A DNA stretch of 64,000 nucleotides from Candidatus Marinacidobacterales bacterium (GCA_965262245.1 OZ253507.1:8220911-8284910), one strand, 5' to 3'; positions 8,213 through 54,088 are shown, numbered from the stretch's first letter. Notes: generated by a model not told the origin, from the sequence alone. A program made the numbers and translations.

Positions 8213-8390
8213 CGCCCTCTCCGGTGCTTCTGCTATCAAGTGTTGGTGAGATGACGCTAAGACTTTACACTGCATTAAGTTACAGCCAAAATAGCGATCG
8301 TGACCTTCGCTGCGCGCTAAATAGAGCGTAAGCGCCTTTTTTGCAAAGGGATACGTACACATCACCAACAGTAAACAGCGCAAGCACCGC
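8213..8390. repeat. MITE family F1 copy (about 170 bp; TIR GGTGCTTCCGCCATTAAGTGTTGGTG)
   Basis: Inverted termini GGTGCTTC(T/C)GC..GTGTTGGTG and CACCAACAG.AAACAGCGCAAGCACC. Same unit at 10780, 11301, 44329, 46185, 53168 and 53922. Confidence 0.75.
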
Positions 8391-8394
8391 GTCA

Positions 8395-8700
8395 CGAGCT
8401 GGTCGATCTCCGCGTCGGCATATACCTGATAGCCGTCGAGCGCGGCCTTGAGGTCGTGCAACTTGTTGGGATCGGTCTCCTCGCTCAGGACCGTCGTCCG
8501 GTAGTAGTCAGCGAACGCCTCTTGGATGGTGTCGACATCGTTCATGAAGTCGAGCACGAACGCGTCGTGTTTCTGCGGGTGCGCTCGATTGAGACGCGAC
8601 AGCGTCTGGACCGCCTTGATCCCGGACAAGATCTTGTCCACGGACAGTGTCGAGGTGACGGCATTGGGAGGGTCACGTTTCTTGTTGCCGAGGCGCGCAC
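8395..8700 (-). pseudogene. Type I restriction enzyme R-subunit (HsdR) C-terminal fragment
   Basis: VDKILSGIKAVQTLSRLNRAHPQKHDAFVLDFMNDVDTIQEAFADYYRTTVLSEETDPNKL is the conserved HsdR C-terminal segment. It is truncated by the MITE. Confidence 0.6.
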
Positions 8701-9437
8701 CAAATCCACCCCTCGCGCTTCGCCTGCCCGATTTCGACCGGGGGCGTTGCGTCTGAGGGGTGAATCGAACGGTTCTCGAGGAAGTCTTTGGCAGCAAGAA
8801 CGCACACGACGGCGTCGATTGCGTCATCGCTAGCCTCTAGTTTGTTCACGTCAACCTCCAGTTGGAGCGATGCGGTTAAGGCATTGATGATCTGCCGACG
8901 TTCTTCGACGCTCGTAGGTTTCTTGTACGCGGTCGATCGGATCCTATGAGTAGCGAGAGTTGCAGCTGGGTAGACTTCGATCGCAGAAACATGCGCGAGC
9001 TCTTGCGGCGACCAAGCTAGCGGTAACGGCGATTGCAGGGCGCGGCGAAGGTCACCAAGGAGCCGTAGGGCAGCATGTGCGGTCCGAGCGATTCGGTCGG
9101 CACCTACGTCCAGCGGGGTCTTGTGTATCGTCTTTTGGATGAAGCGATCGGTCGCGCGTCGGAAGATTTCGTTTTTCGGGACGCGGATTTCTTCCCCAGC
9201 TGAATGCCCGACCAGCGTGTCACCCAATTCGGCAGGCCAGCCCAGCGGCGCATCGATGGCGAGTAGCACTCGGTCGTCGACGATGTCCAGCCACTCGCAT
9301 ATGACGTCCCTTGGTGGGACCCGACCGCACGTCTTCGCCGCGGTCACCGAAACCGAGCCGTCCTCCCAAGTACCCAGAGCGACGCCCACTTTCGCGCTTT
9401 CGGTTGCGCAGTCGACGCCGACAATCACAGTACGCAT
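8673..9437 (-). CDS. DUF429-family protein (RNase H-like fold)
   Basis: N-terminus MRTVIVGVDCA...GW matches DUF429. Its start overlaps the HIT stop by 13 nt. Confidence 0.65.
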   Translation of the reverse strand: MRTVIVGVDCATESAKVGVALGTWEDGSVSVTAAKTCGRVPPRDVICEWLDIVDDRVLLAIDAPLGWPAELGDTLVGHSAGEEIRVPKNEIFRRATDRFIQKTIHKTPLDVGADRIARTAHAALRLLGDLRRALQSPLPLAWSPQELAHVSAIEVYPAATLATHRIRSTAYKKPTSVEERRQIINALTASLQLEVDVNKLEASDDAIDAVVCVLAAKDFLENRSIHPSDATPPVEIGQAKREGWIWCAPRQQET

Positions 9438-9781
9438 TCAACCCTGCCGTTCACGCTAGTGCTGCATTCACAGCGAGGGATCAAATGAACGTGAAGGTGC
9501 GGCACCGTCTGTCCCGCGGCTTCTCCAATGTTGACCCCGATGTTGAAGCCGTCGGGAAGGTGTTTGGACGAGACGGCCTCGCGGGCGACGGCAAGGGCGG
9601 TGAGAAGGTCGGCCTGCTCGTCGCGCGACGCGTCGAACCATGTCGCGACGTGTCTTTTAGTGACGATGAGGGCGTGGCCGTCGCTGACGGGGAAGGCGTC
9701 CCAGAGAGCGAACACGCGCTCGCCCCGGTAGAAGACGCGCTCGGCGTCCGGGGTGCAGAAGGGGCAGGCGGGCTCGGTCAT
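9425..9781 (-). CDS. HIT-family nucleotide hydrolase
   Basis: CPFC...GHALIVTKRHV...HLHVHLIPR histidine triad. Start ATG overlaps the SprT stop (ATGA). Confidence 0.8.
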   Translation of the reverse strand: MTEPACPFCTPDAERVFYRGERVFALWDAFPVSDGHALIVTKRHVATWFDASRDEQADLLTALAVAREAVSSKHLPDGFNIGVNIGEAAGQTVPHLHVHLIPRCECSTSVNGRVECVL

Positions 9782-10302
9782 CGTTTGCGTCGCGTAATCG
9801 TGAGGATGCCGTCGAGCCCGGCGTCGACGCAGGCTCGGCAGCACCAGCGGCGCATCGATCGTCGGGCAACGTGAGTGCGTTGGCACACAGGACATCGATG
9901 GATGTAGTGCCAGTCGTGTCGGCTTCTTTTGGGTGATGCAGCCTTGGTGAGGCTTTTCGGTACGGGAAGGCGTGTTCTCGGTTCATAGCCAGCGGCTTCG
10001 ATGAGCGCTTTCCATTCGGTGCCGTGGGGGCGGATGCGTTGGCCGTGGAGCTCGTGAGCGGCGAGATGTGCCATTTCGTGACAAAGGACTTCCTCGAGAA
10101 GTCCAAGCTCTGCGGATTGGAGGCGCGCTGCGAGTCGCACTTTGCGCTTGTGCGGGTAGCAACGCCCCAGGCTGCGCGTTAGGCGGGAGCTCCATTCGAT
10201 GGAGCTTCTTCTGGGCAGGTTGGGCAGTTTCCAGAGATTGGCCCATCGTTCTAGGGCGCGCACCAGTCTCGGGGGAAGGGCGTTTTCCTGCTCGGGCGTC
10301 AT
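9778..10302 (-). CDS. SprT-like zinc metalloprotease domain protein
   Basis: HExxH motif in LCHEMAHLAAHELHG, plus Cys-rich zinc ribbon HRCPVCQ...WCCRAC. Confidence 0.7.
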   Translation of the reverse strand: MTPEQENALPPRLVRALERWANLWKLPNLPRRSSIEWSSRLTRSLGRCYPHKRKVRLAARLQSAELGLLEEVLCHEMAHLAAHELHGQRIRPHGTEWKALIEAAGYEPRTRLPVPKSLTKAASPKRSRHDWHYIHRCPVCQRTHVARRSMRRWCCRACVDAGLDGILTITRRKR

Positions 10303-10779
10303 GCTCCGAAGGCTAACACGGGAGATGTTTTCTGAAAGATGACGGCGTCCAGACGGGGAAGGGCGGGTTCACGGCTATTGATGAGGGAGGTTTTGGAGTT
10401 CCTGAATGACGGGGAAGGACGTTCAGGTTACTCCCCGAGGGACAAAACTTCCACGATGGGATTCCCTAGCATTCAGGTTACTCCCCGGGCTTTCACGGCC
10501 TCGGGGCGAAGGCTAACACGAAGGGTGGAGCGCGGTGAGGGTTGCCTTGGTGCACAAATACAGGTAAGTCATTGATTCCCGCCGAGGCGACGGGGCATAC
10601 GGACGCCGCCATCTACTGGCACCTGCAGCGGATCTACCAGAAGCACTCCCTCTCGCGGCAGGCGGACCTGGTGCGGTTGGTGCTGTCACTCGCCGAGATC
10701 GGATGAGGGCGGCGCGGGCGTGATCCGCGCGGGTGCGGTAGACGTTGACGGCCTCGACGCCCTCGGCCTGCCGCGCGTC

Positions 10780-10950
10780 GCGCGGTGCTTGCGCTGTTTG
10801 CTGTTGGTGATAAGTACGCATCCCTTTGCAAAAAAGACGCTTACGCTCTATTTAGCGTGCAGCGAAGGTCACGAACGCTATTTTGGCTGTAATGTAATGC
10901 ACCGTAAAGTCTTAGCGTCATCTCACCAACACTTAATGGCGGAAGCACCG
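10780..10950. repeat. MITE F1 copy
   Basis: Same unit as 8213..8390, opposite orientation. Confidence 0.75.
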
Positions 10951-11300
10951 GAAGTTCGCCAATCTCATACAGCTCGAGTTTATGGAAGGGACAGGTGCTT
11001 GAATCTGTGTTAGCAAAGTGAGGACTCGGGTTGCGTCGCGAGCTCGTGACGCCGTCAGTTCGGACGCAACAATGTTCCCGGTCTCGCGATCAACGGCGAT
11101 GTGCAACTTGCGCCATGCGCGCTGCTTTGGCGGTTTGCGAGCGTTTCCAACATGAATCCTCAAGCCCGTGCTATCGATCATCAGGTGGATGGGTTGAGTG
11201 CTCGCGGCTTTCGGAATCCGCAGCTTCTTGCGGAGCAACCTCGAGCGCCGACACAACGTCGAGTAGTCCGGGATCTCGATACCGAGCCCGAGAAGCGAGG
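10951..11300 (-). mobile_element. internal fragment of IS5-family element, sandwiched between two MITE F1 copies
   Basis: Encodes ..TEGFLHSIASLLGLGIEIPDYSTLCRRSRLLRKKLRIPKAASTQPIHLMIDSTGLRIHVGNARKPP.., identical to the transposases at 36625 and 43131. Confidence 0.8.
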
Positions 11301-11480
11301 CGATCGAGTGGGTGCTTGCGCTGTTTGCTGTTGGTGATGTGTACGTATCTCTTTGCAAAAAAAGTACTTACGCTCCATTTAGCGCGCGGCGAAGGTCGTG
11401 AGCGCTATTTTGGCTGTAATCTAATGCAGCATAAAGTCTTAGCGTCATCTTACCAACACTTAATGGCGGAAGCACCGATT
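11301..11480. repeat. MITE F1 copy
   Basis: Same unit; followed directly by a reverse family-A terminal repeat (11480-11520). Confidence 0.75.
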
Positions 11481-11814
11481 TATGGCCTATTTCAAAAGGG
11501 CCGAGTTTTGGCACAGGACGGGGTCCAAAGGGACACCGGCGGCGCTCGTCAACTCAATCGCTCATCGCCAAGCTGCCTGAAACAGGCCGGCTCAGCGAAC
11601 AGACTTCTTCCACGGGCTGCTAGGCTTGGTTGGCAATGGGAGCTAGAATGAGAGGTCTGCTGGGGAGCACCTATCACAGAGCCAGTGCCACGTCGGCTGG
11701 TTTCTGCGAATTTTGAGAACGCCTCCAGGATTCGAGCTTTCGGGCTCCGTTCATATTTTCGGACACGACGGGTAACGTGTGCCGCCTGACGAGAGCATAA
11801 GGAAGTCAGTTCGG

Positions 11815-11858
11815 CGCGATAGGTTCGCTCGATCAACGTCAACTTGACAATACTCTTT
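11815..11858. repeat. solo IS6-family right end (about 44 bp)
   Basis: GCGATAGGTTCGCTCGATCAACGTCAACTTGACAATACTC matches the IS6 copy end at 61615..61655. Confidence 0.7.
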
Positions 11859-11948
11859 TTCAGTATCAAGTTACTGAGATAGGATGTGCTACTAACTGCG
11901 GGGTCAGGTCACGTTGACAGCGAAGGTTGAAAAGGTAATCTCGAATTA

Positions 11949-13130
11949 TTGGGGCAGTTGAGGAGAGGAGCATTGCCCGTATCGATACCCCGCCTTGTCG
12001 TCATTGACTGTGAGACCACTGGCCTAGGGCAACATGACCGTATTGTAGAGATCGCGGCGATTACACTCGATCCGTTGACATGGGAACCGACGGATGAGTA
12101 CGACACCCTGATTAACCCAGAGCGCGATGTCGGCCCGGTGGGTATCCATGGAGTAACGGCATCAATGGTCGAGGCCGCGCCCACCTTTCCCGAGGTTGCC
12201 ACTGTACTGGCCCGCCGTCTCCATGGCTCGATCCTGGTCGCGCATAACCTTCCCTTCGATACCCGAATGCTGGGGTACGAGTTTGACCGGCTCGGAGTTG
12301 CGTTCAACGTCGGCTCAGGTCTGTGCACCCTCAGAGCCACTGGCGAGAAACTCGTAGCCGCGTGCCACAGGTTTGGGATCGCGCTGAACTTCCAGCATCG
12401 AGCGCTCGCCGACGCCCGCGCCACCGCCGCCCTTGCCAGAGAGGTCTTGGCCGGTGACGAGTCTGACTCCGAAGCGGCGACGGTCGGGTATGTCTCCGGA
12501 GTTGCCAATCCAAGGACTCTGCGACGGGAGGGCACGGATGTCGGAATTAGCGAGTTAGCACGCGTCGTGTCTCTCGCTTATTACCCGTCCTCGGATGAGG
12601 CGTTACTCCAGTACCTTGACGCCCTAGACTGGGCGCTGGACGATAACCACATCGATGATCAGGAACGCGCAGCCATTGATAAGTTCGCCGCGACACTTGG
12701 CATCTCCAACGAGGTTCGCCGGGAAGCGCACCGTGCCTATCTGGCGTCGATTATCGCTGCCGCCAAACGTGATGGCGTTGTCACCGAAGCCGAGCACCAC
12801 CTCATCAGTGAGGTCGCGGACACGCTGGGAGTCACCGGAGTGACCATCCCCGAGGTGACAGACCTCCCGGACACAACCAGCCTTCGCAAGGGGATGCGCG
12901 TCTGCTTCACGGGCGAGGCCACCGTCGCCGGGAACTCGATCTCCAGATCTTTCCTGGAGGAAACTGCCGCCCTGTCCGGAATGCAACCTGTTGGTTCCGT
13001 TACGAAGAACGGCTGTGATCTGCTGGTGGTGGCTGATTCCTCCAGTCAGTCGGGAAAAGCACGCAAAGCGCGCGACTACGGTATTCCGGTGATGACGGTG
13101 GTGGATTTCCTCAACAAAGCCGGGTCGTAG
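11949..13130 (+). CDS. DnaQ-like 3'-5' exonuclease (DEDDh) fused to a C-terminal BRCT domain
   Basis: VVIDCETTGL, ILVAHNLPFDTRML and HRALADARAT. C-terminal GMRVCFTGEA...GCDLLVVAD...ARKARDYGIPVMTVVDFL. Confidence 0.75.
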   Translation: MGQLRRGALPVSIPRLVVIDCETTGLGQHDRIVEIAAITLDPLTWEPTDEYDTLINPERDVGPVGIHGVTASMVEAAPTFPEVATVLARRLHGSILVAHNLPFDTRMLGYEFDRLGVAFNVGSGLCTLRATGEKLVAACHRFGIALNFQHRALADARATAALAREVLAGDESDSEAATVGYVSGVANPRTLRREGTDVGISELARVVSLAYYPSSDEALLQYLDALDWALDDNHIDDQERAAIDKFAATLGISNEVRREAHRAYLASIIAAAKRDGVVTEAEHHLISEVADTLGVTGVTIPEVTDLPDTTSLRKGMRVCFTGEATVAGNSISRSFLEETAALSGMQPVGSVTKNGCDLLVVADSSSQSGKARKARDYGIPVMTVVDFLNKAGS

Positions 13131-13197
13131 CTGTATCTCGGGAACATGTACGCAGGTGATTGATGACGCGAGCAGATCTCAACAAGGCGATGCCGTC

Positions 13198-14388
13198 TGG
13201 TCAAAATACTCGAACGCCCAGCGGGTCAGCAGTTTGCACCTTTCCAAAGGCTGCTTGAATCCGCCATCGTGGTCGGATACGTATTCCAGTTCAGCGGAAG
13301 GAGTCGCGATGGACTGGAAGACCATGCTGAGCTACATCTCAGGGTCCGTAGATGAGGAGTTGCTCCTGCGCAACGAGTATCTTGTAGCAGAGAATCGAGT
13401 TCTTCGAAATCAGCTCCAGGGTCGCTTGCGTCTGACCGATGGCGAACGGCGGTCTCTGGCCGAGATCGGAAAGCGTCTGGGTAAGCAAGCCCGTGATGAG
13501 GTCGCGAGTATCGTGAAGCCCGACACGATCTTGGGTTGGCACCGGAGGCTTGTCGCGAAGAAGTTCGATGGCTCCAAGAACCGTCCGTATCCAGGGCGAC
13601 CGCGGGTCGACGCCGACATCGAAGAGCTGGTGGTGCGTCTCGCCAAGGAGAACAAGTCCTGGGGTTACGACCGGATTGCCGGGGCGCTAGCCAACCTCGG
13701 GCATGAAGTGGCCGACCAAACCGTCGGTAACATTCTGAAACGCCACGGCATTCCGCTCGCACCAGAGCGTCGGAAGACCACGACGTGGAGGGAGTTCATC
13801 CGCTCGCACATGGACGTCCTCGCGGCGACAGATTTTTTCACCACGGAAGTGTGGACTCAGGGCGGGTTGGTGACGTACTACGTTCTGTTCTTCATACACC
13901 TGGCTACCCGTCGAGTCCACGTTGCCGGCATCACGCCGCATCCGAACGAACAGTGGATGACTCAAGTGGCTCGCAACGTGACCATGGCGGATGTCGGCTT
14001 TCTGTCCTCGAGCCGATACCTCATTCACGACCGAGACACGAAGTTCTGCCAGTCGTTCCACCGGACCATCGAGGCGATTGGCGTCGCGCCCGTCAAGCTG
14101 CCCGCACGGAGCCCGGATTTGAACTCGTTCGCGGAGCGCTGGGTGAAGTCAGTCAAAGAGGAATGTCTCTCGAAGCTCATCCTGTTCGGCGAGAAGTCGC
14201 TCCGTCATGCGCTTAGGGAGTACGTCGTCTACTGTCACCACGAGAGGAATCATCAAGGCAAGGAGAATCTGCTGCTGTTCCCAGCCAGCGACCAGTTACC
14301 TCAGTCCGAGCGCAAGGTACGCTCCTGTGAACGGCTTGGCGGGTTACTACGTTTCTACCATCGGGAAGCCGCATGAGTATTTTGACCT
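13198..14388 (+). mobile_element. IS481-like insertion sequence, copy 1 (about 1.19 kb; 13-bp TIR GGTCAAAATACTC)
   Basis: GGTCAAAATACTCG at 13199 and its reverse complement GAGTATTTTGACC at 14375. A solo left end also lies at 52349-52395. Confidence 0.7.
13309..14376 (+). CDS. DDE transposase (N-terminal HTH plus rve integrase core), IS481-like
   Basis: ATG after GGAAGGAG. 46% identical in architecture to the 23935..25008 paralog; ..LIHDRDTKF.. core. Confidence 0.8.
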   Translation: MDWKTMLSYISGSVDEELLLRNEYLVAENRVLRNQLQGRLRLTDGERRSLAEIGKRLGKQARDEVASIVKPDTILGWHRRLVAKKFDGSKNRPYPGRPRVDADIEELVVRLAKENKSWGYDRIAGALANLGHEVADQTVGNILKRHGIPLAPERRKTTTWREFIRSHMDVLAATDFFTTEVWTQGGLVTYYVLFFIHLATRRVHVAGITPHPNEQWMTQVARNVTMADVGFLSSSRYLIHDRDTKFCQSFHRTIEAIGVAPVKLPARSPDLNSFAERWVKSVKEECLSKLILFGEKSLRHALREYVVYCHHERNHQGKENLLLFPASDQLPQSERKVRSCERLGGLLRFYHREAA

Positions 14389-14915
14389 CACGGTGCGCCG
14401 GCACAAACCGGTAAGTCTCGCGGGTGCAAGTCCCGCCTAATGAAGGAGTAGCGAACCAGATTGGCCCCGAGTCATGCGTTGTTGTTCGCGAGAGCAAAGG
14501 CGAAGCGTTGACAGGGAGACGTGCGGGCTGGATATTGAGCCGCGAAAGTAAAATAAACTTCGGGGGGCCGACGGCGTCGTATGGCACGGAAGGCAACACG
14601 GAGCAGATCGTTATCGCAAGAGCTGTTCCGCCCCCGCGTGGTCCGAGACCCTGCGCACGCACGCCAAGAGACATACACGGGAGCCGGGAGGTCCCGCATC
14701 TGGTCCTGAGTGGCATCGGGGTCCGCGCTGTGAATCCGCAAGGAGCACGACAGCGACGTACGGATGCGGGAAGTCTGACAGGCCCATAGTAGCTGAGAAG
14801 CCTTTGAACAAAGGCTGGGGTGCGCCTCAGCTCGCGGAGGAGGTGGAGCCAAGGGGGCTGACCAAAGGAAATCCGTTACGGCAAATCAGGTCCCGGACAC
14901 AGCGCCGGGCAGGGA

Positions 14916-18582: not shown

Positions 18583-19645
18583 GGTGCTTCCGCAATCGAG
18601 TGTTGGCAGCCGCCGCGTAACCCGCTCGCATGCTAGAGTTGGAGCCTGATTTCGAGAGACACAGTTCTTTCGTCGACAAGGCCCACGTGAAGTGAATCCC
18701 TAAGCTGTCTCAACCCCGAGTGTCCGCCGTATGAAGCGGAAGCACCGGCACACGCAGGACCCTAGCATTCAAATGCCTCGAGACGGCGTAGCAACACTTA
18801 ATGGCAGAAGCACCGCTGTACTGGTGCTTCCGCCATCAAGTGATGGGATGGACTCCTCCGCTGACATAGACGGCATCGTGCCAAAGTCAGTCGAAAGAAC
18901 GCATCGAAAAAGGAGGAGTCCGAATGAAAGATACGACGATCGCTGTGGGTTGTTGTTTTTTACATTGAATCGCGAAGATTTCTCATTCGTGATTCACCTC
19001 GACCGGCAACCACGTACGAGCAGAAGACGGGAGGCGCAGACGGGGTCAAGGGCGCGTAGCGGCTCGCGTAGCGAGCGAACCCTGGACGCCGTCGAGCACT
19101 CCCGTACCCTCATGGAGTGGTGGCCGTTCTTGATATTTCATCGCGGTGGATTACGGATTAAAGTGATAAACAACATGGGTCTTGCAAAGAACGTCTTCGA
19201 GATTGCCATCTCGCGCGAAGCGGGGAAGGTGTCCAAGCAACTCCGTGTGAGTCGACCCAAGTTGGTGTCGTTTTTTGCGAAACAGAGCGCTGCCACCGTG
19301 CTTCTCGAAGCCTGCGGCTCGGCTCACTTCTGGGCAAGGACGTTGCGACGGTTGGGACACGACGTCGTCCTGCTCCCCGTCCTGTGCCAAAACTCCGCCC
19401 TTTTGAAATAGGCCATAAATCAGCAGCTTAGTGTCCGTGTTTGTCCCCGGGCCAACGAAACGCCAGCCGATGAGACTCTTTAGAAGGGCTGAACGGGCCT
19501 CATTTTCGGTTTTGGTCTCGAATCTCGATTTCCGAGGGACACGTTTGCGCCAAATAGGAGAGCGGGCGCTGACCGGGGGCCGTGCGGCAGCGGAAAAGAG
19601 GCCACCCGAGAGGCCCAGAATCGAGGCCGGGGCTATCGCAGCTTA
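18583..19645. repeat. mosaic repeat cluster, copy 2 (F2, F3, F5, family-A terminal repeat, R4)
   Basis: Nucleotide matches to 2395-4050 and 31535-32730. Confidence 0.6.
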
Positions 19646-20420: not shown

Positions 20421-20429
20421 AACTGCGAG

Positions 20430-31534: not shown

Positions 31535-32730
31535 CAAGCAGCCGCGGATGAATAAATAGAAGGCACAGGGCTGGCCACACGGTGCCTGACGTTCAGGGAC
31601 ACCTTCGTGTGCACGCCGACATCCTTACTAATGGCGTTCGCCGACACAGGCAGGCCAGCTGACATTAGCATTCAAATACGGCGTAGCAACACTTGATGGC
31701 GGAAGCACCAGGAAACCCACCGAAAGGCGAGTGGAATGACCAGTGTGCATCGTGGCCGACTCCTTGTATGGGATTTTGGTAAATGTCGTACAGCGAGCCT
31801 GGGCGTTACCGTACGAAATTCTACACCTCACCGCGAGGTAAATGACAGAGATGGCGGTCGTGAGTGTTCCGGAACGGATCTACAGGACAGTGCGGCGGCA
31901 CCTTCTACGTCGGTGGCATCGGACCGAAGACGCCGCGTTTCTGTACACGGCAACCAATGAGGACCCTTTCAAGTACGTAGAATGGTTCCCGTTCGGGGCG
32001 CGCGGATGAATAAATAGAAGGCACAGGATCCACGCGACAACGAAGGCGATCCAGTCCCGACCAACTTTGGGTTTGTCGTCAGTGTTGTTCATGGAAACGA
32101 GTGTTACCGAGTGATTGAAGGGTAGCAGATCCGAACAGCTAGGCAAAAAAGCGGGGCGCCTTTTTCCGTAGTGTAGCTAGGTGTTGTTTATCACTTTAAT
32201 CCGTAATCCACCGCGATGAAATATCAAGACCGGCCACCACTCCATGAGGGTACGGGAGTGCTCGACGGCGTCAAGGGTTCGCTCGCTACGCGAGCCGCTA
32301 CGCGCCCTTGACCCCGTCTGCGCCTCCCGTCTTCTGCTCGTACGTGGTTGCCGGTCGAGGTGAATCACGAATGAGAAATCTTCGCGATTCAATATAAAAA
32401 AACAACACTAGACCACTTTTGCCGAGACCGGATGGCTCCAGACTGCACCATCCGCCACCCAGTCTGCCCAATTGTGGCACTGCAGAGACGGTTGAGATTT
32501 TCCGCGCGGTTGGCGTGGGTTTTCAAGATTAGGTGTCACCAGAGACGCGCTATAAGGCCTGAACAGGCCTCATTTTCGGTATTGGTCTCTAATCTCGATT
32601 TTCGAGCGCCACGTTTGCGCCAAATTGGGGAGAGGGCGCTGACCGGGCCATGCGGGTGGCGGGAAAAGAGGCCGCCCGAGAGGCTCAGAATCGAGGCCGG
32701 GGCTACTGCCGCGTAGCTGGCCTAGCACGT
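31535..32730. repeat. mosaic repeat cluster, copy 3
   Basis: GATGAATAAATAGAAGGCACA ends at 31535 and 31995, F3 (inverted), F5 (inverted), R4. Confidence 0.6.
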
Positions 32731-44328: not shown

Positions 44329-44495
44329 GGTGCTTGCGCTGTTTACTGTTGGTGATGTGTACGCATCCCTTTGCAAAAAAGGCGCTTACGCTCTATTTAG
44401 CGCGCAGCGAAGGTCACGAGCGCTATTTTAGCTGTAACTTAATGCACCGTAAAGTCTTAGCGTCATCTCACCAACACTTGATGGCGCAAGCACCG
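44329..44495. repeat. MITE F1 copy
   Basis: Same unit. Confidence 0.7.
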
Positions 44496-44640: not shown

Positions 44641-44991
44641 ATGGAATATTCTAAACGAAAAGAACTCTATAGTTGCATTGAACGGGACCGAAACACCAAG
44701 GTGCTGTCCTTCATAACGAGTGACCGCAAAGGCATGGAAACGGTCATTGCTCAGGATTGCATTGATCCATTTGTTGACCTTCTCGAAAAAATAGGACCGA
44801 CCAAGCGGATATCTTTAATTCTGCACACTAACGGAGGGCAAACTCTCGCGGCATGGCGGCTAGTGAATCTTATACGCATATTTTGCGACGAACTTGAAGT
44901 ACTAATTCCACTGAAAGCTCTTAGTGCTGGCACTCTAATTTCTATAGGTGCAGATCGAGTGGTCATGACGAAGCAGGCGAGGATATCCTGA
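44641..44991 (+). pseudogene. ClpP/crotonase-fold serine protease (S49/SDH-like) N-terminal fragment in an AT-rich patch
   Basis: LILHTNGGQTLAAWRLVNLIR...LKALSAGTLISIGADRVVM. Only 116 aa; followed by the IS256 transposase. Confidence 0.45.
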
Positions 44992-45010: not shown

Positions 45011-46210
45011 GTGACTCCCTTCAAGATCGTCGGTGTCAAAGCTGGCGATCAAAAAGAAAGGAGCCACCCGGTGAGAGCAGATACGAAGAAGAGAAAGAAT
45101 GCAACACAGATGCTGAGGGCGACGCAGGAGCAAGAGTGGTGGGCGGATCAAGTTGTGCATGTGATGCTGGAGGGCAAGCGAGCGCTGGACGCCGCGATGC
45201 TCGATGTCGGACGCCTGGTAGCTGAGACGCTCATGTACATGGAGCGCGAAGAGAGATCTGGGCCAGACTACCATCCTACGTCGTCCGGGCTTCGCAAATG
45301 GGCGAGTCAACGTGGGTCGATCTATGTCGGTGACCAGAAGCTCCCTGTCGAGCACCCTCGATTGCGGGGCCCGGAGGGTGAGGTCGGGCTGAGAACCTAC
45401 GAGCAGCTCAAGAATCGCGGGGGCTTTTCGGAGGAACTCCTGTCGGAGGTGCTTCGGGGAATGTCTGCTCGCAAGTACGAAGAGACGGTGACGGCGGCAG
45501 GCAAGGCTTTCGGTGTGACGCCGAGCTCGGTGTCCCGCCATCTGGTCGAGGCGACGGCGAAGCAGCTGAAGCAGTTCCAGGAGCGCAGTCTCGAAGAGTT
45601 TCCGCTCTTCGCGATGTACCTAGACACGGTCCACCGCGGCGGTCAGGCGTTCGTGGTCGCGCTCGGCGTGGACCGTGAAGGGAAAAAGCTCCCCCTGGGC
45701 TTCTGGGAAGGGGCGACGGAGAACCACGAGATCTGCGAGGAATTGCTGGAAGAGTTGGAGCGACGGGGGTTAAAGCTCTCCAAACGGATCCTCTGGGTAA
45801 CCGATGGTGGCGGGGGGATCATCAAGGCGCTCAAAGACCGATACGGTAAGAAGCTCATCCACCAGCGGTGTACTTTGCACAAAGACCGCAACATCCAGCG
45901 CCACCTGCCCAAACGCTACCGCAAGCAGGCACACCACCTCTTCGCGACTGCCTTGGAGCAGAACAGCTACAAGGACGCGAAGAAGATGTTGCAGGAGTTC
46001 GAGCGCTGGCTTCGCGACATCAACGAGTCGGCGGCAGACTCACTCCTCGAGGCACTCGAGGAGGTGCTGATGCTCCACAAGTTGAAGGTCCCCGCTCTAC
46101 TGCGCCAGAGCCTGCACTCGACGAATCCTATAGAGAGTATGTTCTCCATGGTTCGTAGTTGCGAGCGCAACATCAAACGCTACGGTGCTTCCGCCATTAA
46201 GTGTTGGTGA
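45011..46210 (+). CDS. IS256-family (mutator-type) transposase, 3' end replaced by MITE F1
   Basis: ..LHSTNPIESMFSMVRSCERN.. then ..YGASAIKCW* is encoded by the MITE terminal inverted repeat. Confidence 0.75.
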   Translation: MTPFKIVGVKAGDQKERSHPVRADTKKRKNATQMLRATQEQEWWADQVVHVMLEGKRALDAAMLDVGRLVAETLMYMEREERSGPDYHPTSSGLRKWASQRGSIYVGDQKLPVEHPRLRGPEGEVGLRTYEQLKNRGGFSEELLSEVLRGMSARKYEETVTAAGKAFGVTPSSVSRHLVEATAKQLKQFQERSLEEFPLFAMYLDTVHRGGQAFVVALGVDREGKKLPLGFWEGATENHEICEELLEELERRGLKLSKRILWVTDGGGGIIKALKDRYGKKLIHQRCTLHKDRNIQRHLPKRYRKQAHHLFATALEQNSYKDAKKMLQEFERWLRDINESAADSLLEALEEVLMLHKLKVPALLRQSLHSTNPIESMFSMVRSCERNIKRYGASAIKCW

Positions 46211-46349
46211 GATGACGCTAAGACTTTACGCTGCATTAAATTACAGCCAAAATAGCGCTCGCGACCTTTGCCGCGCGCTACATAGAGCGTAAGCGCTTTT
46301 TTTGCAAATGGATACGTACACATCACCAACAGCAAACAGCGCAAGCACC
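46185..46349. repeat. MITE F1 copy abutting the IS256 transposase
   Basis: GGTGCTTCCGCCATTAAGTGTTGGTG...CACCAACAGCAAACAGCGCAAGCACC. Confidence 0.75.
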
Positions 46350-47415
46350 ATCATGGAGCTGAAGATAACACCCTCGGGCCAGACGATTGTAAAGCCTACG
46401 GCCCTTGGCCCCGGCGCAAACACAGACACTAAGCTGCTGATTTATGGCCTATTTCAAAAGGGCCGAGTTTTGGCACAGGACGGGGTATACACGAATTCGC
46501 GGTGCCCTCTCGAATCTCGGCCATATCGTAGCCAGGAGCACCATCGCAAGTATTCTGCGGGAACACGGCATCGAGCCCGCGCCGCTTAGGGCTTCCGCTT
46601 TAACCGAAGCATGCTTAGAGGAAAATCTTCAGTAGCAATCATCGAACCAATCACGAGCAATCGGAATGAACGAGTTGACGGCCGCGCCAAGTTGAGCACC
46701 CATCGCGGGTGACGCCGCGTAGACCTTTTTCCCCTGGTTCCGAACGGCCTCCACTGCCGGGCGCGCACCGAACTTGACTAGTCTCCGGTCTGCCGGGACC
46801 ATGCCGGCATGATTTCGTCGTTTGTTCGCGCTCTCGTCTCTAGAGGACCTAGAACCGAGGCCGGGGCTACCGCGGCGCAGCGGGCTAAAGCACGTTCTGG
46901 TCCAGGTGCGGCCCGGGCCTGGACCCAGGTTTCCGCTCGGGAGCGTGGCATCCCGTCCTGTGCCAAAACTCGGCCCTTTTGAAATAGACCACAAATCAGC
47001 AGCTTAGACCCCCTTGGAATCCGCGCAGAGGGGAATCCAGGGTATTTCGCGCCGCAGGGCTGACTTCCGACCCATGGGCTGGCGGATGAATAAATAGAAG
47101 GCACAACCGGCTAGGACCGGCGCACCCACAAAGTTACTCGGTCTATCAGTCCTCAAACCAGAACTCAAGCCCGGCCCGCCACCAGCCGACGCCTATTTCC
47201 CACTGGATGGAGGTCTTGTATTCAGCGAGCGACCCGGCGACTCAAAGGCATGTAGCGGGACGACCGACATTTTGGCGTGGGAAGATTACCACAGGACAAT
47301 GTGATATAAATACCAATCCGTGCGATATGCTAGCTTTTTACCAAGAGATGTGAGAGCGCCATGAGCCGAGAGCGTGCTAGCGTGAGCCGAACATCTTTCT
47401 AAGAAATGAGATAGG

Positions 47416-48371: not shown

Positions 48372-48663
48372 TCGAGTGCCAGTACCTGCCCCAACCTCTC
48401 CGATTAAGTTCAAAGAACTTCTGGAGAAGTTTGGATGTGGTGTGGTCAATGAAAGTGATTACAACTGGGTTCTGAAAACCCCGGACCCCAGTCGGCCTCT
48501 CATCACCATTCCAAAGAAGGGAGATACAATCTCCCTGTCCATAATGATGCCCACCATGGATATGTTGCGTATGGACAATGGCACCTACTTCAAATTAAAG
48601 AGAGAGGTGGAGGAAGGCAGGGACGATGAGCCCCCGGTCCTCGCCAGCCGGCCCAAGATGTAG
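48346..48663 (+). CDS. HicA/YcfA-like toxin-family protein (putative)
   Basis: ..IKFKELLEKFGCGVVNESDYNWVLKTPDPSRPLITIPKKGDTISLSIMMPTMDMLRM. Start overlaps the HicB-like gene by 26 nt. Lacks the usual His. Confidence 0.4.
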   Translation: MLQWLPQPNRVPVPAPTSPIKFKELLEKFGCGVVNESDYNWVLKTPDPSRPLITIPKKGDTISLSIMMPTMDMLRMDNGTYFKLKREVEEGRDDEPPVLASRPKM

Positions 48664-49825
48664 GGGTCAGGGTCGGTGCTTCCGCAATTAAGTGTTGGTG
48701 GCTGCCGCGTAACCCGCTCGTGTGCTAGAGTTTGAGCCTGATTTCGAGAGACGCAGTTCTTTCGGCGATGCGGGCTGGGCTGACCACACGGTGGGGAGTG
48801 ACCGAAATCGTTCGTTCACTCGAAAGTACCGTTCCGCATCATCGACCGGCAGGCCGACCAGATGGACGGCCTGATCGGCGACCTGCTCGATGCCGGGCGC
48901 ATCGAGACGGGCACGCTGTCGGTCGCGCCCGAGCCGACCCAGGTGACGGCGCTGGTAGACCAGGCGCGCAGCACCTTCGTGAGCGGCGGCGCCCGGCACA
49001 CGCTCCTCATCGACCTCGCGCCGGACCTGCCTGTGCCTTCTATTTATTCATCCGCGCGCATCGAACTGGATTAGTCTCCAGTCTGCCGGCATCATGCCTG
49101 CATGATTTCGTCGTTTGTTCGCGCTCTCATCGCAGCCCTCAAGGCTCGGCCCGAGCTAGCTCTCGGGAAAGTCGCTCTTCGCGCGTCTGGAGATTCAGGG
49201 TTTAGTCCGACATCTGCTGGTAGCCGCTTCCGGCTCCCTTCGCGTTTTCAGACACGACGGGGTCCAGGCGCGCCTGTCTTGAGTTCGTTTGTATTCTTGG
49301 ACACGACGCGAAGAGCGACAGGACTACGCCGGCCGTTGCGCGCTGATGTGTGCAACGCCGCGAAAACAGGACGACGCACAACCCGACCTGAACGCGAGGA
49401 CTGATACTGAACGCGCGATGCGAGGTCTGATTCTGGTGGCGGTCGGCGCCGCCTCTCTTGCCGCCGGCGGTTTCATCGCGCTGAGACGCGCCCACGTGGA
49501 ACGCGCGCGATCGGGCCGGGTCACCGTGCCGACGGTCATCGCCGCCTTTGTCGCCTACCTTGGGCCGAGCGTCTGTTCGCTGCTGGCGTCGTGGTGGTCG
49601 GGCCTGGCTGCTTCCGCTTCCGCGCGGGCTGGCCTACCCCGTCCTGTGCCAACACTCGGCCCTTTTGAAATAGACCATCAGTGTCATGAATTGACGGACA
49701 CGAGCTACCCTCAAAAGGAGTGGAAATGAAGTAAAGTAATTGGAATCCTTCGTTCAAGGGGAAACCGTAGTACCCTAAGAGCGTCTTTCAATGCAGAAGA
49801 GGGCAGTGCCATTTGGAGGAGGACT

Positions 49826-50077
49826 ATGGCCAAAGCGCGAGTGTTGACGAGGTCGGAACTAGCCGAGCATTTGGGCGTCGATAAACAGATGGTAACAAAA
49901 TGGGCGCGGTCTGGGATGCCGGTCCACACTAGAGGGCGCGGCGTGGCGTCTCAATTCCGTCTGCGGGAGGTCCGGGCGTGGCTAAAGGTGCGGGAAGCCA
50001 AGGCCAAAGCGGCGGAGAAGGCAAAGGTGCGAGAAGCCAAAGCGGCAGAGAAGGCGAAGAAGACAGCGAAGCAATAA
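49826..50077 (+). CDS. AlpA/excisionase-like HTH DNA-binding protein with Lys/Ala-rich tail
   Basis: VLTRSELAEHLGVDKQMVTKWARSGMPVHTRGRGVASQFRLREVRAWL. Confidence 0.55.
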   Translation: MAKARVLTRSELAEHLGVDKQMVTKWARSGMPVHTRGRGVASQFRLREVRAWLKVREAKAKAAEKAKVREAKAAEKAKKTAKQ

Positions 50078-50636
50078 GACGCGGCGGCGATAAGGTGAGA
50101 CAAGTCTGACTGCGCGAGTCCTTGGAACTCGCTAGTCTCGCGGTACCGGTTGCCAACGACGCTGCTCGGGGAGCGCGATGACGTCGTACTCCTGGTCTTC
50201 GGTGACGAGTGCCTCTTCGAAACTGCGAAAGCTGTCGACGGCTTGCTTGCCCAGATGGAGCTCTATTCGCCGGAAGATAATCAGCTGGCTTCGATTCATC
50301 GTTCACACTCTCTCGAATACCAGCCGTTCGAGCCAGTTGAGACAGTCGAGCCCGTCCTGTGCCAAAACTCGGCCCTTTTGAAATAGACCACAAATCAGCA
50401 GCTTAGACGCCCTTGGAATCCGCGCAGAATCGAGGGTGTTTCGCGCCGCAGGGCTGACTTACGACCCCTGGGCTGCGGGTGGCGAGCGACAGGCCCACCG
50501 GGGGTGCGCACGGCTGGCTCAAATCGGCTGTGGGGCGAGCTACGGGCAGTGAGCTTCGCACCCGGAGGGCAGTGAGCTTCGCACCCGGAAGTCCCTCATT
50601 AGACTGGACTTTATCGAGCAGAAGAGCGAACGTTCG

Positions 50637-51071
50637 GTGATGCCGCAAGATACAGGGGTTGGCCGGAACGTCGTTTTGGACGGTTTGGACTTCGCCAGCT
50701 TACGGCGGGTCTGGGAGCAAACCTTTGGGGCTACTCCGCCAAGCTCGCTCTCGCGCGTTTTCCTGCACCGTGTTCTGGCGTACGAACGCCAGTGCCGGAC
50801 CCATGGCGGGCATTCGGCTACAACCCGGCGCATTCTGGCTGCCATGGCGAACGAGACACCAAGCTCCGGCGCTCCCGCAGGGTCCGTTTCTGCCGGTACC
50901 CATCTCGTCCGCGAGTGGAATGGCCGGACCTACCAGGTCGAGATACTCGACAGCGGCTATCGGTTCGATGGCAAAACCTATCCGTCCCTCACGGCCATCA
51001 CAAAGCGAATCACCGGAACCCACTGGTCCGGACCACGCTTTTTCGGTCTGACGCCCAAGCGCAAGGCCTAA
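50637..51071 (+). CDS. DUF2924-family protein, copy 1
   Basis: ..LDGLDFASLRRVWEQTFGATPPSSLSRVFLHRVLAYERQCRTHGG.. matches DUF2924. A third truncated copy lies at 4060-4180. Confidence 0.6.
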   Translation: MMPQDTGVGRNVVLDGLDFASLRRVWEQTFGATPPSSLSRVFLHRVLAYERQCRTHGGHSATTRRILAAMANETPSSGAPAGSVSAGTHLVREWNGRTYQVEILDSGYRFDGKTYPSLTAITKRITGTHWSGPRFFGLTPKRKA

Positions 51072-51072
51072 C

Positions 51073-51414
51073 ATGAAGAAAATCCGTTGCGCCATCTATA
51101 CGCGAAAGAGTGCGGAAGAAGGTCTCGAACAGGAGTTCAACTCCCTCGATGCGCAGCGCGAGGCCTGCACCGCGTATGTTGCGAGCCACAAGGCGGAAGG
51201 CTGGGTGCTGCTGCCAACCGTCTACGAGGACGCAGGGAGCTCGGGAGGAACCTTGGAGCGCCCGGGCCTGCAGCGCTTGCTCACCGACATCGACGCCGGT
51301 CTCGTCGAGCAGATCGTGGTCTACAAGGTCGACCGACTGACCCGTTCCCTCTCCGACTTTGCAAAGCTCGTCGAGCGGCTCGACGTGGGGCCGGCACCGG
51401 TTTTGTCTCGGTGA
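51073..51414 (+). pseudogene. large serine recombinase N-terminal catalytic domain, truncated by a family-A terminal repeat
   Basis: MKKIRCAIYTRKSAEEGLEQEFNSLDAQREAC...VVYKVDRLTRSL is the resolvase domain with catalytic Ser. Ends at 51414. Confidence 0.7.
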
Positions 51415-51681
51415 CCCCGTCCTGTGTCAAAACTCGGCCCTTTTGAAATAGACCACAAATCAGCAGCTTAGACGCCCTTGGAATCCGCGCAGAATCGAGG
51501 GTATTTCGCGCCGCAGGGCTGGCTTCCGACCCCTGAGCTGCGGGTGGCGAGCGACAGGCCCACCGGGGGTGCGCACGGCTGGCTCAAATCGGCTGCGGGG
51601 CGAGCTACGGGCAGTGAACTGCGCACCCGGAAGTCCCTCATTAGACTGGACTTTATCGAGCACAAGAGCGAACGTTCGGTG

Positions 51682-52113
51682 ATGCCGCAGGATACAGGGG
51701 TTGGCCGGAACGTCGTTTTGGACGGTTTGGACTTCGCCAGCTTACGGCGAGTCTGGGAGCAGACCTTTGGGGCTGCTCCTCCAAGCTCGCTCTCGCGCGT
51801 TTTCCTGCGCCGCGTTCTTGCGTACGAACGCCAGTGCCGGACCCATGGCGGGCATTCGGCTGCAACCCGGCGCACTCTGGCTGCCATGGTGAACGGGACA
51901 CCAGGCAACAGCGCCGCCGCAGGGTCCGTTTCTGCCGGCACCCATCTCGTCCGCGAGTGGAATGGCCGGACCTACCAGGTCGAGGTAATCGACAACGGCT
52001 ATCGGTTCGATGGCAAAACCTATCCGTCCCTCACTACCATCGCAAAGCGAATCACCGGCACCCACTGGTCAGGACCACGCTTTTTCGGTCTCACGCCCAA
52101 GCGCAAGGCCTAA
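51682..52113 (+). CDS. DUF2924-family protein, copy 2 (tandem duplicate)
   Basis: About 90% identical to copy 1. Confidence 0.6.
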   Translation: MPQDTGVGRNVVLDGLDFASLRRVWEQTFGAAPPSSLSRVFLRRVLAYERQCRTHGGHSAATRRTLAAMVNGTPGNSAAAGSVSAGTHLVREWNGRTYQVEVIDNGYRFDGKTYPSLTTIAKRITGTHWSGPRFFGLTPKRKA

Positions 52114-52115
52114 CA

Positions 52116-52240
52116 TGAAGAAGATCCGCTGTGCCATCTATACGCGAAAGAGCGCGGAAGAGGGTCTCGAACAGGAGTTCAACTCCCTCGATGTGCTCCA
52201 CAGGGGACGCCGCCGGATTAGGGTCCGGGATCCCTCCCGG
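52116..52240 (+). pseudogene. serine recombinase N-terminus, second copy, truncated after about 25 codons by an IS6 end
   Basis: MKKIRCAIYTRKSAEEGLEQEFNSLD, then diverges at the IS6-type end at 52245. Confidence 0.6.
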
Positions 52241-52244
52241 CGGT

Positions 52245-52350
52245 ACTGTCAAGTTGACGAAAAACTAGCTGACCGACCCCCAAGATACTGGGCTCGAGCC
52301 CGTCGTGAACCCGCCATGTTGGGCATCAGGAACGGCTGTCAGCCTCAACT
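52245..52350. repeat. 106-bp IS6-derived miniature element with perfect 16-bp TIRs (GGTACTGTCAAGTTGA)
   Basis: GGTACTGTCAAGTTGACG...CGTCAACTTGACAGTACC. Confidence 0.7.
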
Positions 52351-52579
52351 TGACAGTACCGTGCAAACTGCTGACCCGCTGGGCGTTCGAGTATTTTGAC
52401 CTCACGGGAAATCCTGTACACCGGAAATCAGTTATTTCAATGACGGTTATCGGGTAGCTGCCGCTCTCGGGTTTCAATCCGCCCCTTCGACGGCAACCTG
52501 CCAGCCGATCCTTCAGGCCCGTACGTTCGGGGACATCTTCGTGGGCACGCCTGCGTCGTCGGTTCGGCCGGGCCGGCTA

Positions 52580-53165
52580 CTACAGCAGTCCGTTCAGAAC
52601 CTTGAAGGCAGCCTCGAAGCGGTCAAGGGTCGCCCTGTTCAGTTTCGGTCCTAGCGTGGCGATGTTCTCGGCGAAGTAGCGAGCTGGGCGATAGTGATCG
52701 AAGCTCCCGGTCTTCAGCGGGTTTGCCTTCAGCCATTCCTTAATGTTGACGAGGATTCGCGGAGGCTTGCCAAGGTCCTCCGGCTTAATCGGTTTCACCA
52801 GTTCGTTGGCGTATTCCGCGTTGACTGCGTCGAGGTATAGCTGGGGTTCGAACATGTCCTCGATGTCCGCCTCACTCGTGCCAGTGTACCGCGCGAAAGT
52901 GTGGACATTCTTCTTGGCCAGCAGTTTCTTCTTGTAGAGGTTCTCAATGCTCTGCTGGTCGCGCCGCTGAAAATCGATGAGCGTCGCGACCTTCATCTTC
53001 TTCTGTGAGCCGAGCAGAGACACGAACGTTGTTACCTTCTTGGATCCACCGACAGGCGTAATGGTCCAGGCATCGGAAAGGCCAATGCGTTGCTGGCTGG
53101 CCAGCACGCCGGACATAGTCGACAGGTAGAGGAGGTCGGAAACCCCTTCCACGATGAGGCAGTTC
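52580..53165 (-). pseudogene. C-terminal fragment of a Toprim/OLD-family (DUF4435-like) nuclease, N-terminus replaced by MITE F1
   Basis: ..NCLIVEGVSDLLYLSTMSGVL...ITPVGGSKKV.. is Toprim-like. The MQRDTYTSPTANSAST start is a MITE read-through. Lower-GC segment. Confidence 0.4.
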
Positions 53166-53167
53166 GG

Positions 53168-53334
53168 GGTGCTTGCGCTGTTTGCTGTTGGTGATGTGTA
53201 CGTATCCCTTTGCAAAAAAAGAGCTTACGCGCCATTTACCGTGCGGCGAAGGTCGTGAGCGCTATTTTGGCTGTAATTTAATGCAGCGTAAAGTCTTAGC
53301 GTCATCTCACCAACACTTAATGGCGGAAGCACCC
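53168..53334. repeat. MITE F1 copy
   Basis: Same unit. Confidence 0.75.
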
Positions 53335-53340
53335 ACTCCT

Positions 53341-53592
53341 GCGCAATATCGCCAACGCCCTCTCCTGGCTCGACCGAATCAAAGCAGGCAAAACCTATGA
53401 GCAGATTGCCACCGAAGACGCCATCCCAACGGACCGCGTGCGCAAGGCAATCCGCTATGCCTTCCTGGCTCCCGACATCGTCCGCGCCATTGTCGAAGGC
53501 CGCCAGCCCGTTGGGCTGACCTCGAGCTACCTCTTGCATCATCCGCTTCCCGACGATTGGGAGAAACAGCAAGTGCTCGTCAAAACGCTGTG
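53341..53592 (+). pseudogene. 3' half of a split gene (HTH-like region plus conserved tail ..AFLAPDIVRAIVEGRQPVGLT..); 5' continuation lies at 8128..8212
   Basis: The 31 nt ACTCCTGCGCAATATCGCCAACGCCCTCTCC flank MITE F1 copies at both loci. Joined, they give one open frame ..VDRTLLRNIANALSWLDRIKAGKTYEQIA... Confidence 0.5.
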
Positions 53593-53921
53593 AGCCTGCC
53601 AGCGCCCACTCCGTGAATGGCCTCGGTTAGCAGCAAGCTGCTCTCCGACACTGGCCTCCACCAATCAGCCTCAAACTGGCCCAAATTCCCTGTCATGGTT
53701 TCCAGACTCGGATAGCTCCTTGTACTGGACCGTCTGCGGAGTCATCTTCGTTTCCTCCATAAAACTCCGCTGGATGAATTCGAGGTTTGGCCAATTCGAA
53801 TTCCGCTATTCGCCTTCTCCTCAGGCGCGATCTAGGCGTTAAGCGTCTTCTCATTGTCTGCGCGATTAAGTGGAAAAACGGGCCGATAAGCCCCAAAATC
53901 GCCCCAAATTGCACGTTAAGG

Positions 53922-54088
53922 GGTGTTTGCGCTGTTTACTGTTGGTGATGTGTAGGCATCCCATTGCAAAAGAGGCGCTTACGCTCCATTTAGCGCGCAG
54001 CGAAGGTCACGAACGCTATTTTGGCTGTAATTTAATGTACCGTAAAGTCTTAGTGTCATCTCACCAACACTTAATGGCGGAAGCACCG
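53922..54088. repeat. MITE F1 copy joined to internal IS5 sequence
   Basis: MITE end abuts the IS5 body at CCTGGTTGTCCGGATGG. Confidence 0.75.

Follow-up and report, generated by a model that had tools for sequence, protein, structure and literature searches.

A putative 166-bp MITE-type element sharing its termini with an IS1-like insertion sequence at breakpoints in a “Ca. Marinacidobacterales” genome

A 64,000-nucleotide stretch of a “Candidatus Marinacidobacterales” genome (GCA_965262245.1, OZ253507.1:8220911-8284910; hereafter the window) raises the question of why one short repeat, F1, lies again and again at the exact breakpoints of other mobile elements. An earlier note, generated from the window sequence alone, described F1 as a recently active family of miniature transposable elements with inverted repeats (MITEs) and as a major driver of rearrangement. 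According to our analysis, F1 is probably a 166-bp non-autonomous element of the MITE type, whose ends are the terminal inverted repeats (TIRs) of a 1.2-kb insertion sequence (IS) of the IS1 family with a single open reading frame (ORF), and whose footprint is likely to stem from rearrangements adjacent to those ends.

The F1 element and its joints in the window

Both termini of F1 far exceed chance expectation in the window: at up to three mismatches, 12 matches to the left terminus and 7 to the right were counted, against none expected from 100 shuffles. When the seven loci were aligned together with 20 bp on either side, they delimited a unit of 166 bp, which begins GGTGCTTCCGCC... and ends ...GCGCAAGCACC and at both borders of which the similarity is lost abruptly. 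Copies with GGTGCTTCCGCC... at the 5' end are designated as lying on the plus strand. BLAST and an independent profile search agreed on seven full copies and no F1 fragments in the window (Table 1), the window copies being 90–95% identical to the one at 46184 by BLAST. The TIRs are 26 bp long, and the left and right repeats are identical at 20 of the 26 positions. The seven-copy family with TIRs of about 26 bp, as first proposed, was thus borne out by the terminus counts, the alignment and both searches. The start coordinates given at that time were exact for 44329, 53168 and 53922, while 8213, 10780 and 11301 have to be shifted by 10, 4 and 10 bp, respectively, and 46185 by 1 bp.

Across 59 copies, the conservation of alignment columns is about 93% throughout and reaches 99% in the terminal 10 bp. 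Identical borders in differing contexts were seen in the seven window copies and in 72 copies over all loci examined, representing at least nine species-level metagenome-assembled genomes (MAGs). The size of 166 bp and the lack of coding capacity agree with what is expected of a MITE (less than about 300 bp). The sole open frame of F1, (TTG)QRDTYTSPTANSAST, leads out of the right terminus and has no family match; the peptide that had been read in reverse at the start of several spurious ORFs corresponds to this frame.

All seven copies in the window sit at joints between unrelated sequences, and all 14 termini are complete to the last base, with differing sequences adjoining them. The left terminus of the copy at 46184 truncates an IS256-family transposase gene, an intact copy of which (in L106) extends about 150 nt beyond the truncation point. 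The earlier note had recognized this truncation and credited F1 with the last 9 codons and the stop; the element in fact supplies 8 codons plus the stop. The internal IS5 fragment between two F1 copies was likewise found, with borders at 10993-11310 in place of 10951-11300, as was the fusion of F1 to internal IS5 sequence at 54088, from where the window is equivalent to 43363 onward. Two further genes had been named as interrupted by F1. The Toprim-like gene can be recognized by a weak Pfam match (E = 0.016), and the gene at 8389 is indeed cut, but its designation as HsdR found no match in Pfam, NCBIfam or PDB; the remaining part of this gene was nowhere in the window. Compared with other copies, the IS fragments in the window show 98–99% identity, but the divergence among the F1 copies amounts to 5–10%; the joints therefore formed later than the F1 copies that take part in them.

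Another very abundant IS or MITE end, CCCCGTCCTGTGCCAAAACTCGGCCCTTTTGAAATAGACCAT... (“E”), was noted at 14 sites in the window (for example, 661-703, 2296-2338, 11477-11524 and 46425-46486). Its interior is a frequent joint point for F1 and IS termini, in other genomes repeatedly after its nucleotide 14.

A plausible partner insertion sequence and the wider family of small elements

Scanning a species-representative genome collection with the TIR pattern returned at least 100 matching stretches. Among the matches listed, nearly all TIR-bearing stretches belong to MAGs of Acidobacteriota (“Ca. Marinacidobacterales,” Terriglobia and Bryobacterales), and the paired TIRs are spaced at 166–167 bp in 41 cases, at 244–246 bp in eight and at exactly 1200 bp in three. 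The 1200-bp element with F1-type termini holds one uninterrupted ORF of 355–371 aa, the product of which contains a CxxC...CxxC motif, a helix-turn-helix (HTH) and a DDE-like region. Its best family match is transpos_IS1 of NCBIfam (E = 9e-24), at 84 bits against a curated cut-off of 100, and in Pfam it gives weak matches to DDE_Tnp_IS1 (E = 3e-4) and rve_3. More than 3000 homologues of the transposase were found, typically of 355 aa, many of them with PF03400 or annotated by JGI as “IS1 family transposase.” In 23 copies the full-length IS measures 1195–1206 bp and has the termini GGTGCTTCCGC..., in agreement with the size (0.7–1.2 kb) and the TIRs (about 20–30 bp, GGT) of the IS1 family. The classical two-ORF layout of IS1 (insA and insB' with a -1 frameshift) was not observed, the partner having a single ORF. 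A single-ORF subgroup of IS1 exists in the ISfinder tables; a literature search for ISMhu11 and for the single-ORF IS1 tables found nothing in the library searched.

The left TIR of F1 matches the left inverted repeat of this IS at 25 of 26 positions, and the IS occurs together with an F1 copy on contig L111. An autonomous partner with the same TIRs, to which the earlier note had pointed, was thus found. No copy of its transposase was detected by BLAST within the 64-kb window; it is present in related “Ca. Marinacidobacterales” MAGs. Two copies of the IS, 100% identical to each other, were retrieved by way of the identical transposase that they encode (P0002). The first (L112:1392-2591) interrupts an IS21-family element with an 8-bp target-site duplication (TSD), CAACGACG, the empty site of which is found at L111:685-692, and the other joins IS21 to unrelated DNA without a duplication. 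Because the two copies are identical and one has both the TSD and the empty site, the enzyme of the partner IS is capable of a canonical IS1-type 8-bp TSD and was active very recently. The common termini suggest that this 355-aa transposase, with its zinc finger, HTH and DDE region, may recognize the F1 termini in trans.

Apart from the TIRs, F1 has nothing in common with the 1.2-kb IS. Small elements with the same TIRs were found in JGI metagenomes (L115-L234) and in other MAGs; they are mostly exactly 166 bp long and can be aligned with F1 over the full length. Those from the metagenomes, which represent many unrelated environments, have the conserved core blocks of F1 (TAAGnCTTTAT, TTACAGCCnAATTT and ATAAGTG) at roughly 50% divergence. 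A core profile made from 18 non-F1 sequences without their TIRs recovered all seven F1 cores of the window (E = 1.7e-12 to 1.7e-7), without any further match in the 64 kb. F1 thus belongs to a widespread family with a near-constant length of about 166 bp and a conserved core. A 24-mer specific to F1 itself had no match in the JGI metagenomes, and a plasmid database search with F1 and the region at 18823 gave no DNA match, only generic IS110 protein matches.

Derivation of the F1 core from the 5' untranslated region of the IS was considered and found no support. A MAFFT alignment was suggestive, but a TIR-less profile of IS left ends detects another small element, F2 (see below), and not F1. 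The profile of the MITE core, in turn, gave no convincing match to the left ends of the IS.

A conserved core and a constant length of about 166 bp across very divergent lineages may also be the marks of a repeat that serves the host and is not a transposon relic at all, for instance a REP-like sequence, a gene for a small RNA or a cassette with a terminator or promoter. Folding of single sequences agrees with this possibility, the minus strand of F1 folding better than shuffled sequences (z = -7.1; plus strand, z = -3.5). Alignment folds of 57 close and 19 divergent copies on both strands, however, give only the TIR stem, with covariation around zero (terms -0.83, +0.32 and -0.15). No match of F1 to Rfam was obtained even at E = 5, no promoter-like or terminator-like pattern was found in it, and its copies lie in broken genes and IS fragments. 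We consider a host function very improbable. The core blocks are more consistent with a protein-binding architecture than with RNA, and their fixed spacing might provide cis-acting sites for the assembly of a transposition complex.

Missing target-site duplications and probable rearrangement at the ends

None of the 72 F1 copies has 8- or 9-bp flanks that agree within two mismatches, and the distribution of mismatches equals the shuffled expectation. TSDs were seen in none or one of 16 F2 copies (0–1/16) and in one of nine full-length IS from genome and ENA loci. A scan of JGI metagenomes added 14 full-length IS and 13 elements of 151–167 bp from unrelated environments, among which there was no perfect TSD and one match of 7/9. 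A search for TSDs of 1–60 bp, direct or inverted, over single copies and all pairs of termini returned only one pair of 32 bp in the window, besides overlaps that lie within multi-copy elements. As F1, F2 and the full-length IS are nearly all without TSDs, their absence is the norm for the whole clade and not peculiar to F1. The earlier note had regarded copies that lack TSDs and are always embedded in the same larger repeat as the sign of a sub-part of a bigger element; the TSDs are absent (0/72), and the copies do not always lie in the same larger repeat. Missing TSDs usually result from adjacent deletions or from recombination between IS copies (PMC11708052).

Alternatively, F1, F2 and the IS might insert intrinsically without target duplication, by blunt or variable cleavage, and most copies would then be simple insertions. 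This would accommodate the 22 of 23 full-length IS and the approximately 100 small elements that lack TSDs in many unrelated lineages and environments. The ISfinder tables, in which the single-ORF IS1 subgroup has direct repeats of 0–9 bp, speak in its favor as well, and two long overlaps between paired termini (21 and 32 bp), described below, hint at a variable stagger. Nevertheless, the sole insertion with a verifiable empty site has the canonical 8-bp TSD, no F1 in the window is flanked by two halves of one sequence, all copies joining unrelated fragments, and no empty site for a duplication-free insertion was found among the sequences examined. Therefore, we regard intrinsically TSD-less insertion as improbable.

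We favor rearrangement next to IS1-type ends as the source of the F1 footprint. In this IS clade, simple insertion with an 8-bp duplication is rare, and the termini are instead found flush with apparent deletions and new joints. IS1 promotes adjacent deletions. The terminus-flush joints may have arisen by IS1-style intramolecular (replicative) transposition, leading to an adjacent deletion or inversion, and recombination between copies possibly adds to the rearrangement. End-adjacent events of this type would explain why every F1 copy of the window is at a breakpoint (in IS256, IS5, OLD/Toprim-like or recombinase-like sequences) and why none has a TSD.

Differences between strains were found at the same termini. 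Looking up the DUF429 host gene (8673-9437) retrieved contig L101, which is identical to the window (99.96%), whereas for the gene at 44641-44991 no record was obtained. Two contigs, L103 and L104, represent a second haplotype and are 99.7–99.8% identical over window positions 10791-8389. In this haplotype, the orthologous F1 at 10784 is followed by 213 bp that are absent from the window, and the difference starts exactly at the right terminus; no second F1 lies at the far end of the 213-bp segment in the longer haplotype. The gene that is joined in the window, after ...GTGACGC, to the right terminus of the copy at 8223 continues in L103 and L104 as an uninterrupted 316-aa ORF, with no F1 at that point. 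The copy at 8223 also belongs to a 1.24-kb unit (7149-8388), together with an 80-bp fragment of a recombinase-like gene, X, and a 4HBT thioesterase-like gene, and this unit recurs at 99.4–99.8% identity (L106, L107, L109 and L110). At least five different sequences adjoin the F1 right terminus of the unit, and on the side of the left terminus (8222 back to 7149) these five do not differ. Terminus-flush differences of this kind, which are classical for IS1, are the marks of deletions next to an end and of newly formed joints. Recombination between homologous copies certainly plays a part too, but it cannot account for the 213-bp case. As for the other end of the 1.24-kb unit, at least three different sequences were seen joined to it.

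These data also bear on the assumption that the F1 copies are inert relics, spread by segmental duplication, with flanks shuffled only by homologous recombination and no transposase acting today. Such relics would be expected to lack TSDs, as all F1 copies do, to be 5–10% diverged and grouped into subfamilies (two, with linked variants) with some mosaics, and to travel within larger repeats, as the copy at 8223 does in its 1.24-kb unit with at least five contexts. Nevertheless, this origin is unlikely in view of the 213-bp difference located exactly at an F1 terminus without a second F1, the joint inside a gene that has no F1 in L103 and L104, the intact last bases of all 14 window termini next to differing neighbors, and the activity of the cognate IS, with its two identical copies and one verified fresh TSD. 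On the other side, since the F1 copies are 5–10% apart and form two subfamilies of linked variants, there was no recent burst of one master copy. The recent activity postulated in the earlier note therefore holds for the ends and for the partner IS, and not for a burst of new F1 copies. The idea that F1 drives rearrangement is supported by the terminus-flush differences between strains, through a putative mechanism; a role as the major driver is presumptive in a window so dense in IS that a junction will probably lie in one wherever it occurs.

Several points weigh against end-adjacent rearrangement by a mobile F1. No TSD on any F1 copy and no clean pair of F1 insertion and empty site were found among all sequences examined, and mobility of F1 as a unit is therefore something that we infer. 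Pairs of 8-bp inverted duplications, as expected from replicative inversions, were absent among the termini examined, which sample a small part of each genome. The right TIR of F1 agrees with the left one at only 20 of 26 positions. The mosaics indicate that recombination among F1 copies also shuffles flanks. The assignment of the partner to IS1 lies below the curated NCBIfam cut-off, and the 64-kb window has no copy of its transposase. Finally, the 213-bp difference might be a deletion in the window or a gain by the other haplotype, and the coding argument for its polarity was uninformative.

The two long overlaps deserve separate consideration. The copies at 8223 and 53168 are inverted and bound 45.1 kb; a perfect 32-bp direct repeat, part of gene X, adjoins the outward left terminus of each and is the sole such pair among the 21 termini that a relaxed pattern detects in the window. 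This arrangement looks like a 45.1-kb composite bounded by F1, with a 32-bp duplication. Counting against a composite, the verified TSD has 8 bp, the two copies belong to different subfamilies, and the joint of the 8223 copy with gene X also occurs in other contexts; two independent joints into separate copies of gene X, which is multi-copy, are possible. The second overlap, of 21 bp, was found inside the IS1-like IS itself by comparing two MAGs, between an F1 left terminus (L023:5640-5805) and an F1 right terminus (L078:362-527), and these two joints have the polarity of a target duplication.

A bolder scenario, which we consider speculative and rather unlikely, would include these overlaps. 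The elements of about 166 bp would be an ancient, nearly length-invariant and widespread family (soil, peat, freshwater and marine metagenomes) with the core as a protein-binding scaffold, and their termini, together with a TSD-poor clade of IS1-like transposases, would act mainly as one-ended “recombination ends” that delete, invert and occasionally move tens of kb between two copies, with long variable duplications. The 45.1-kb segment 8223-53333 with its 32-bp repeat and the 21-bp overlap of L023 and L078 would be candidate examples. If this were true, the elements would be a main force behind the plasticity of the genomes of these Acidobacteriota.

As a kind of element, F1 is ordinary, probably a non-autonomous derivative family of an IS1-family IS; its footprint is unusual. 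In common with IS1 of Escherichia coli, the partner has termini beginning with GGTG..., an N-terminal zinc finger/HTH and a probable IS1-type DDE region, and, in one verified insertion, an 8-bp TSD; likewise, probable deletions start exactly at an element end. The partner differs in having a single 355-aa ORF in place of the frameshifted insA/insB' pair, in its length (1200 vs. 768 bp), in the lack of TSDs in nearly all copies, in scoring below the NCBIfam cut-off for IS1, and in its host group, uncultured Acidobacteriota. Bacterial MITEs such as MITEAba12 (PMC6382973) are, like F1, small, non-coding and multi-copy, have the TIRs of an autonomous IS and lie inside genes and other IS. Unlike them, F1 has no TSD in any of the 72 copies, and its core is conserved and its length of about 166 bp nearly invariant across very divergent lineages. 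One textbook feature of MITEs, the TSD, is thus missing from F1, as it is from nearly every copy of the parent IS.

Copies of IS26 and other IS6 elements are also found at breakpoints, truncating their neighbors and bracketing short foreign fragments in direct orientation (compare 10784-11476), and they are often without flanking TSDs owing to intramolecular replicative events (PMC4471558, PMC7986276). In contrast to IS26, F1 is non-autonomous and associated with another transposase family, and the 8-bp inverted duplications typical of IS26 were not found among the termini examined. TIMEs are Tn3-derived miniature elements that form composite transposons, TIME-COMPs, in which two of them can bracket a large segment (PMC13367494), as the inverted F1 pair does with its 45.1 kb and direct repeat. 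However, the repeat here has 32 bp instead of 8 bp, the paired F1 copies are of different subfamilies and one of the junctions occurs elsewhere, and composite transposition is putative.

The clade bears on the open question of how often IS ends yield deletions and rearrangements as opposed to simple insertions. TSDs are missing from some 100 small copies and from 22 of the 23 full-length IS, against one verified 8-bp TSD, and this contrast, with the terminus-flush strain differences, makes the clade a natural test case. In addition, an anatomy and a partner transposase are now given for an abundant repeat in the large, IS-rich genomes of uncultured Acidobacteriota. For annotation, it is of value that F1 creates spurious or chimeric ORFs and marks the points of gene truncation.

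F2 and an IS1111-type element in the terminal repeat

F2, with the same type of TIRs, is represented in the window by two copies and two fragments. It contains subterminal sequence of the IS, as detected by BLAST and by the profile of IS left ends (E = 5e-14 to 5e-18), and therefore derives from the 1.2-kb IS by internal deletion. Its two fragments in the window share 17 bp of F2 yet stand in the “wrong” order.

The TIR copy at 18823 is followed, 82 bp further on, by the start of a DEDD transposase of the IS110/IS1111 family, and this recombinase was considered as a possible mobilizer of F1. The IS110 family is not known to make TSDs, which would fit the flanks of F1. The DEDD element has the Pfam domains DEDD_Tnp_IS110 and Transposase_20 and, when intact, is 1425 bp long, with subterminal repeats of its own (GGACTCCTCC/GGAGGAGTCC) and a 3' non-coding region of about 330 bp; it has no match in Rfam. 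It sits inside the IS1-type TIR, and the insertion point in 10 of 10 left junctions is the same, after TIR nucleotide 20 (GGTGCTTCCGCCATCAAGTG^TTGCTACGCC). In intact copies, the remaining TIR and then the F2 body follow on the far side; right junctions show either the remaining TIR or a look-alike site within the gene of the element itself. Because the element has its own ends, unrelated to those of F1, and is inserted in an IS1-type TIR, it was rejected as the partner, and the probability that it mobilizes F1 is negligible.

In its fixed position and orientation within the TIR of another transposon, the DEDD element resembles IS4321/IS5075 of the IS1111 group. Those elements target the TIRs of Tn21-family transposons; the DEDD element goes into the TIR of an IS1-family IS and of its F2 derivative instead. 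Insertion at nucleotide 20 of the IS1-type TIR represents a second natural case of TIR targeting by this recombinase family.

Table 1. Coordinates of F1, related elements and adjoining features (window positions unless a locus is named; L and R, left and right F1 termini)
Feature	Position	Strand	Remarks
32-bp direct repeat within gene X, first copy	8191-8222	+	adjoins outward L terminus of F1 at 8223
F1	8223-8388	+	subfamily B; L adjoins 80-bp fragment of recombinase-like gene X; R inside a gene intact in haplotype L103/L104
Gene, 5' part	8389-8827	-	truncated by R of F1 at 8223; 316-aa intact form at L103:2426-3376
F1	10784-10949	-	213 bp flush with R absent from window relative to haplotype L103/L104
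IS5-family internal fragment	10993-11310		between directly oriented F1 copies at 10784 and 11311
F1	11311-11476	-	R adjoins IS5 internal fragment; L adjoins terminal ~48 nt of E-type IS end
F1	44329-44494	-	downstream of IS5-family element (transposase 43131 to about 44082)
IS256-family transposase gene	45011-46183	+	3'-truncated at F1 L terminus; NCBIfam E = 5e-60, Pfam
F1	46184-46349	+	L truncates IS256-family transposase gene; R adjoins internal position of E element
OLD-like Toprim gene fragment	52583-53167	-	truncated at R of F1 at 53168; weak Pfam match
F1	53168-53333	-	subfamily A; R adjoins OLD/Toprim-like gene fragment; L adjoins gene X
32-bp direct repeat within gene X, second copy	53334-53365	+	adjoins outward L terminus of F1 at 53168
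F1	53922-54087	-	L fused to internal IS5 sequence at 54088
IS5-family element minus first ~230+ nt	54088-54845	+	starts flush with F1 L terminus
F2, 244 bp	2402-2645	+	F1-type TIRs; internal-deletion derivative of 1.2-kb IS1-like IS
F2 variant, 232 bp	18583-18814	-	TIR pattern, BLAST
F2 fragment (F2 positions 1-142)	31568-31709	-	cut by another IS end
F2 fragment (F2 positions 126-244)	48675-48793	-	17-bp F2 overlap with fragment 31568-31709
20-bp stub of IS1-type TIR	18823-18842	+	left by IS1111-type insertion at its fixed target point
Broken IS1111-type element (IS110-family DEDD transposase N-terminus)	18843-19377	+	interrupted by 227-bp repeat 18949-19175; cut by E end
IS1111-type element loci	18823-19377; L013:956-2380, 4994-6420; L093, L078, L007, L040, L029, L038, L077		TIR-targeted

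The repeat that interrupts the broken IS1111-type element, of about 200–230 bp, occurs in two more places in the window (2742-2935 and 32181-32407) with 98–99% identity and is likely to be a further small mobile element. Positions 14427-14651 hold a group II intron domain (Rfam RF02005; 179 bits, E = 2.8e-52).

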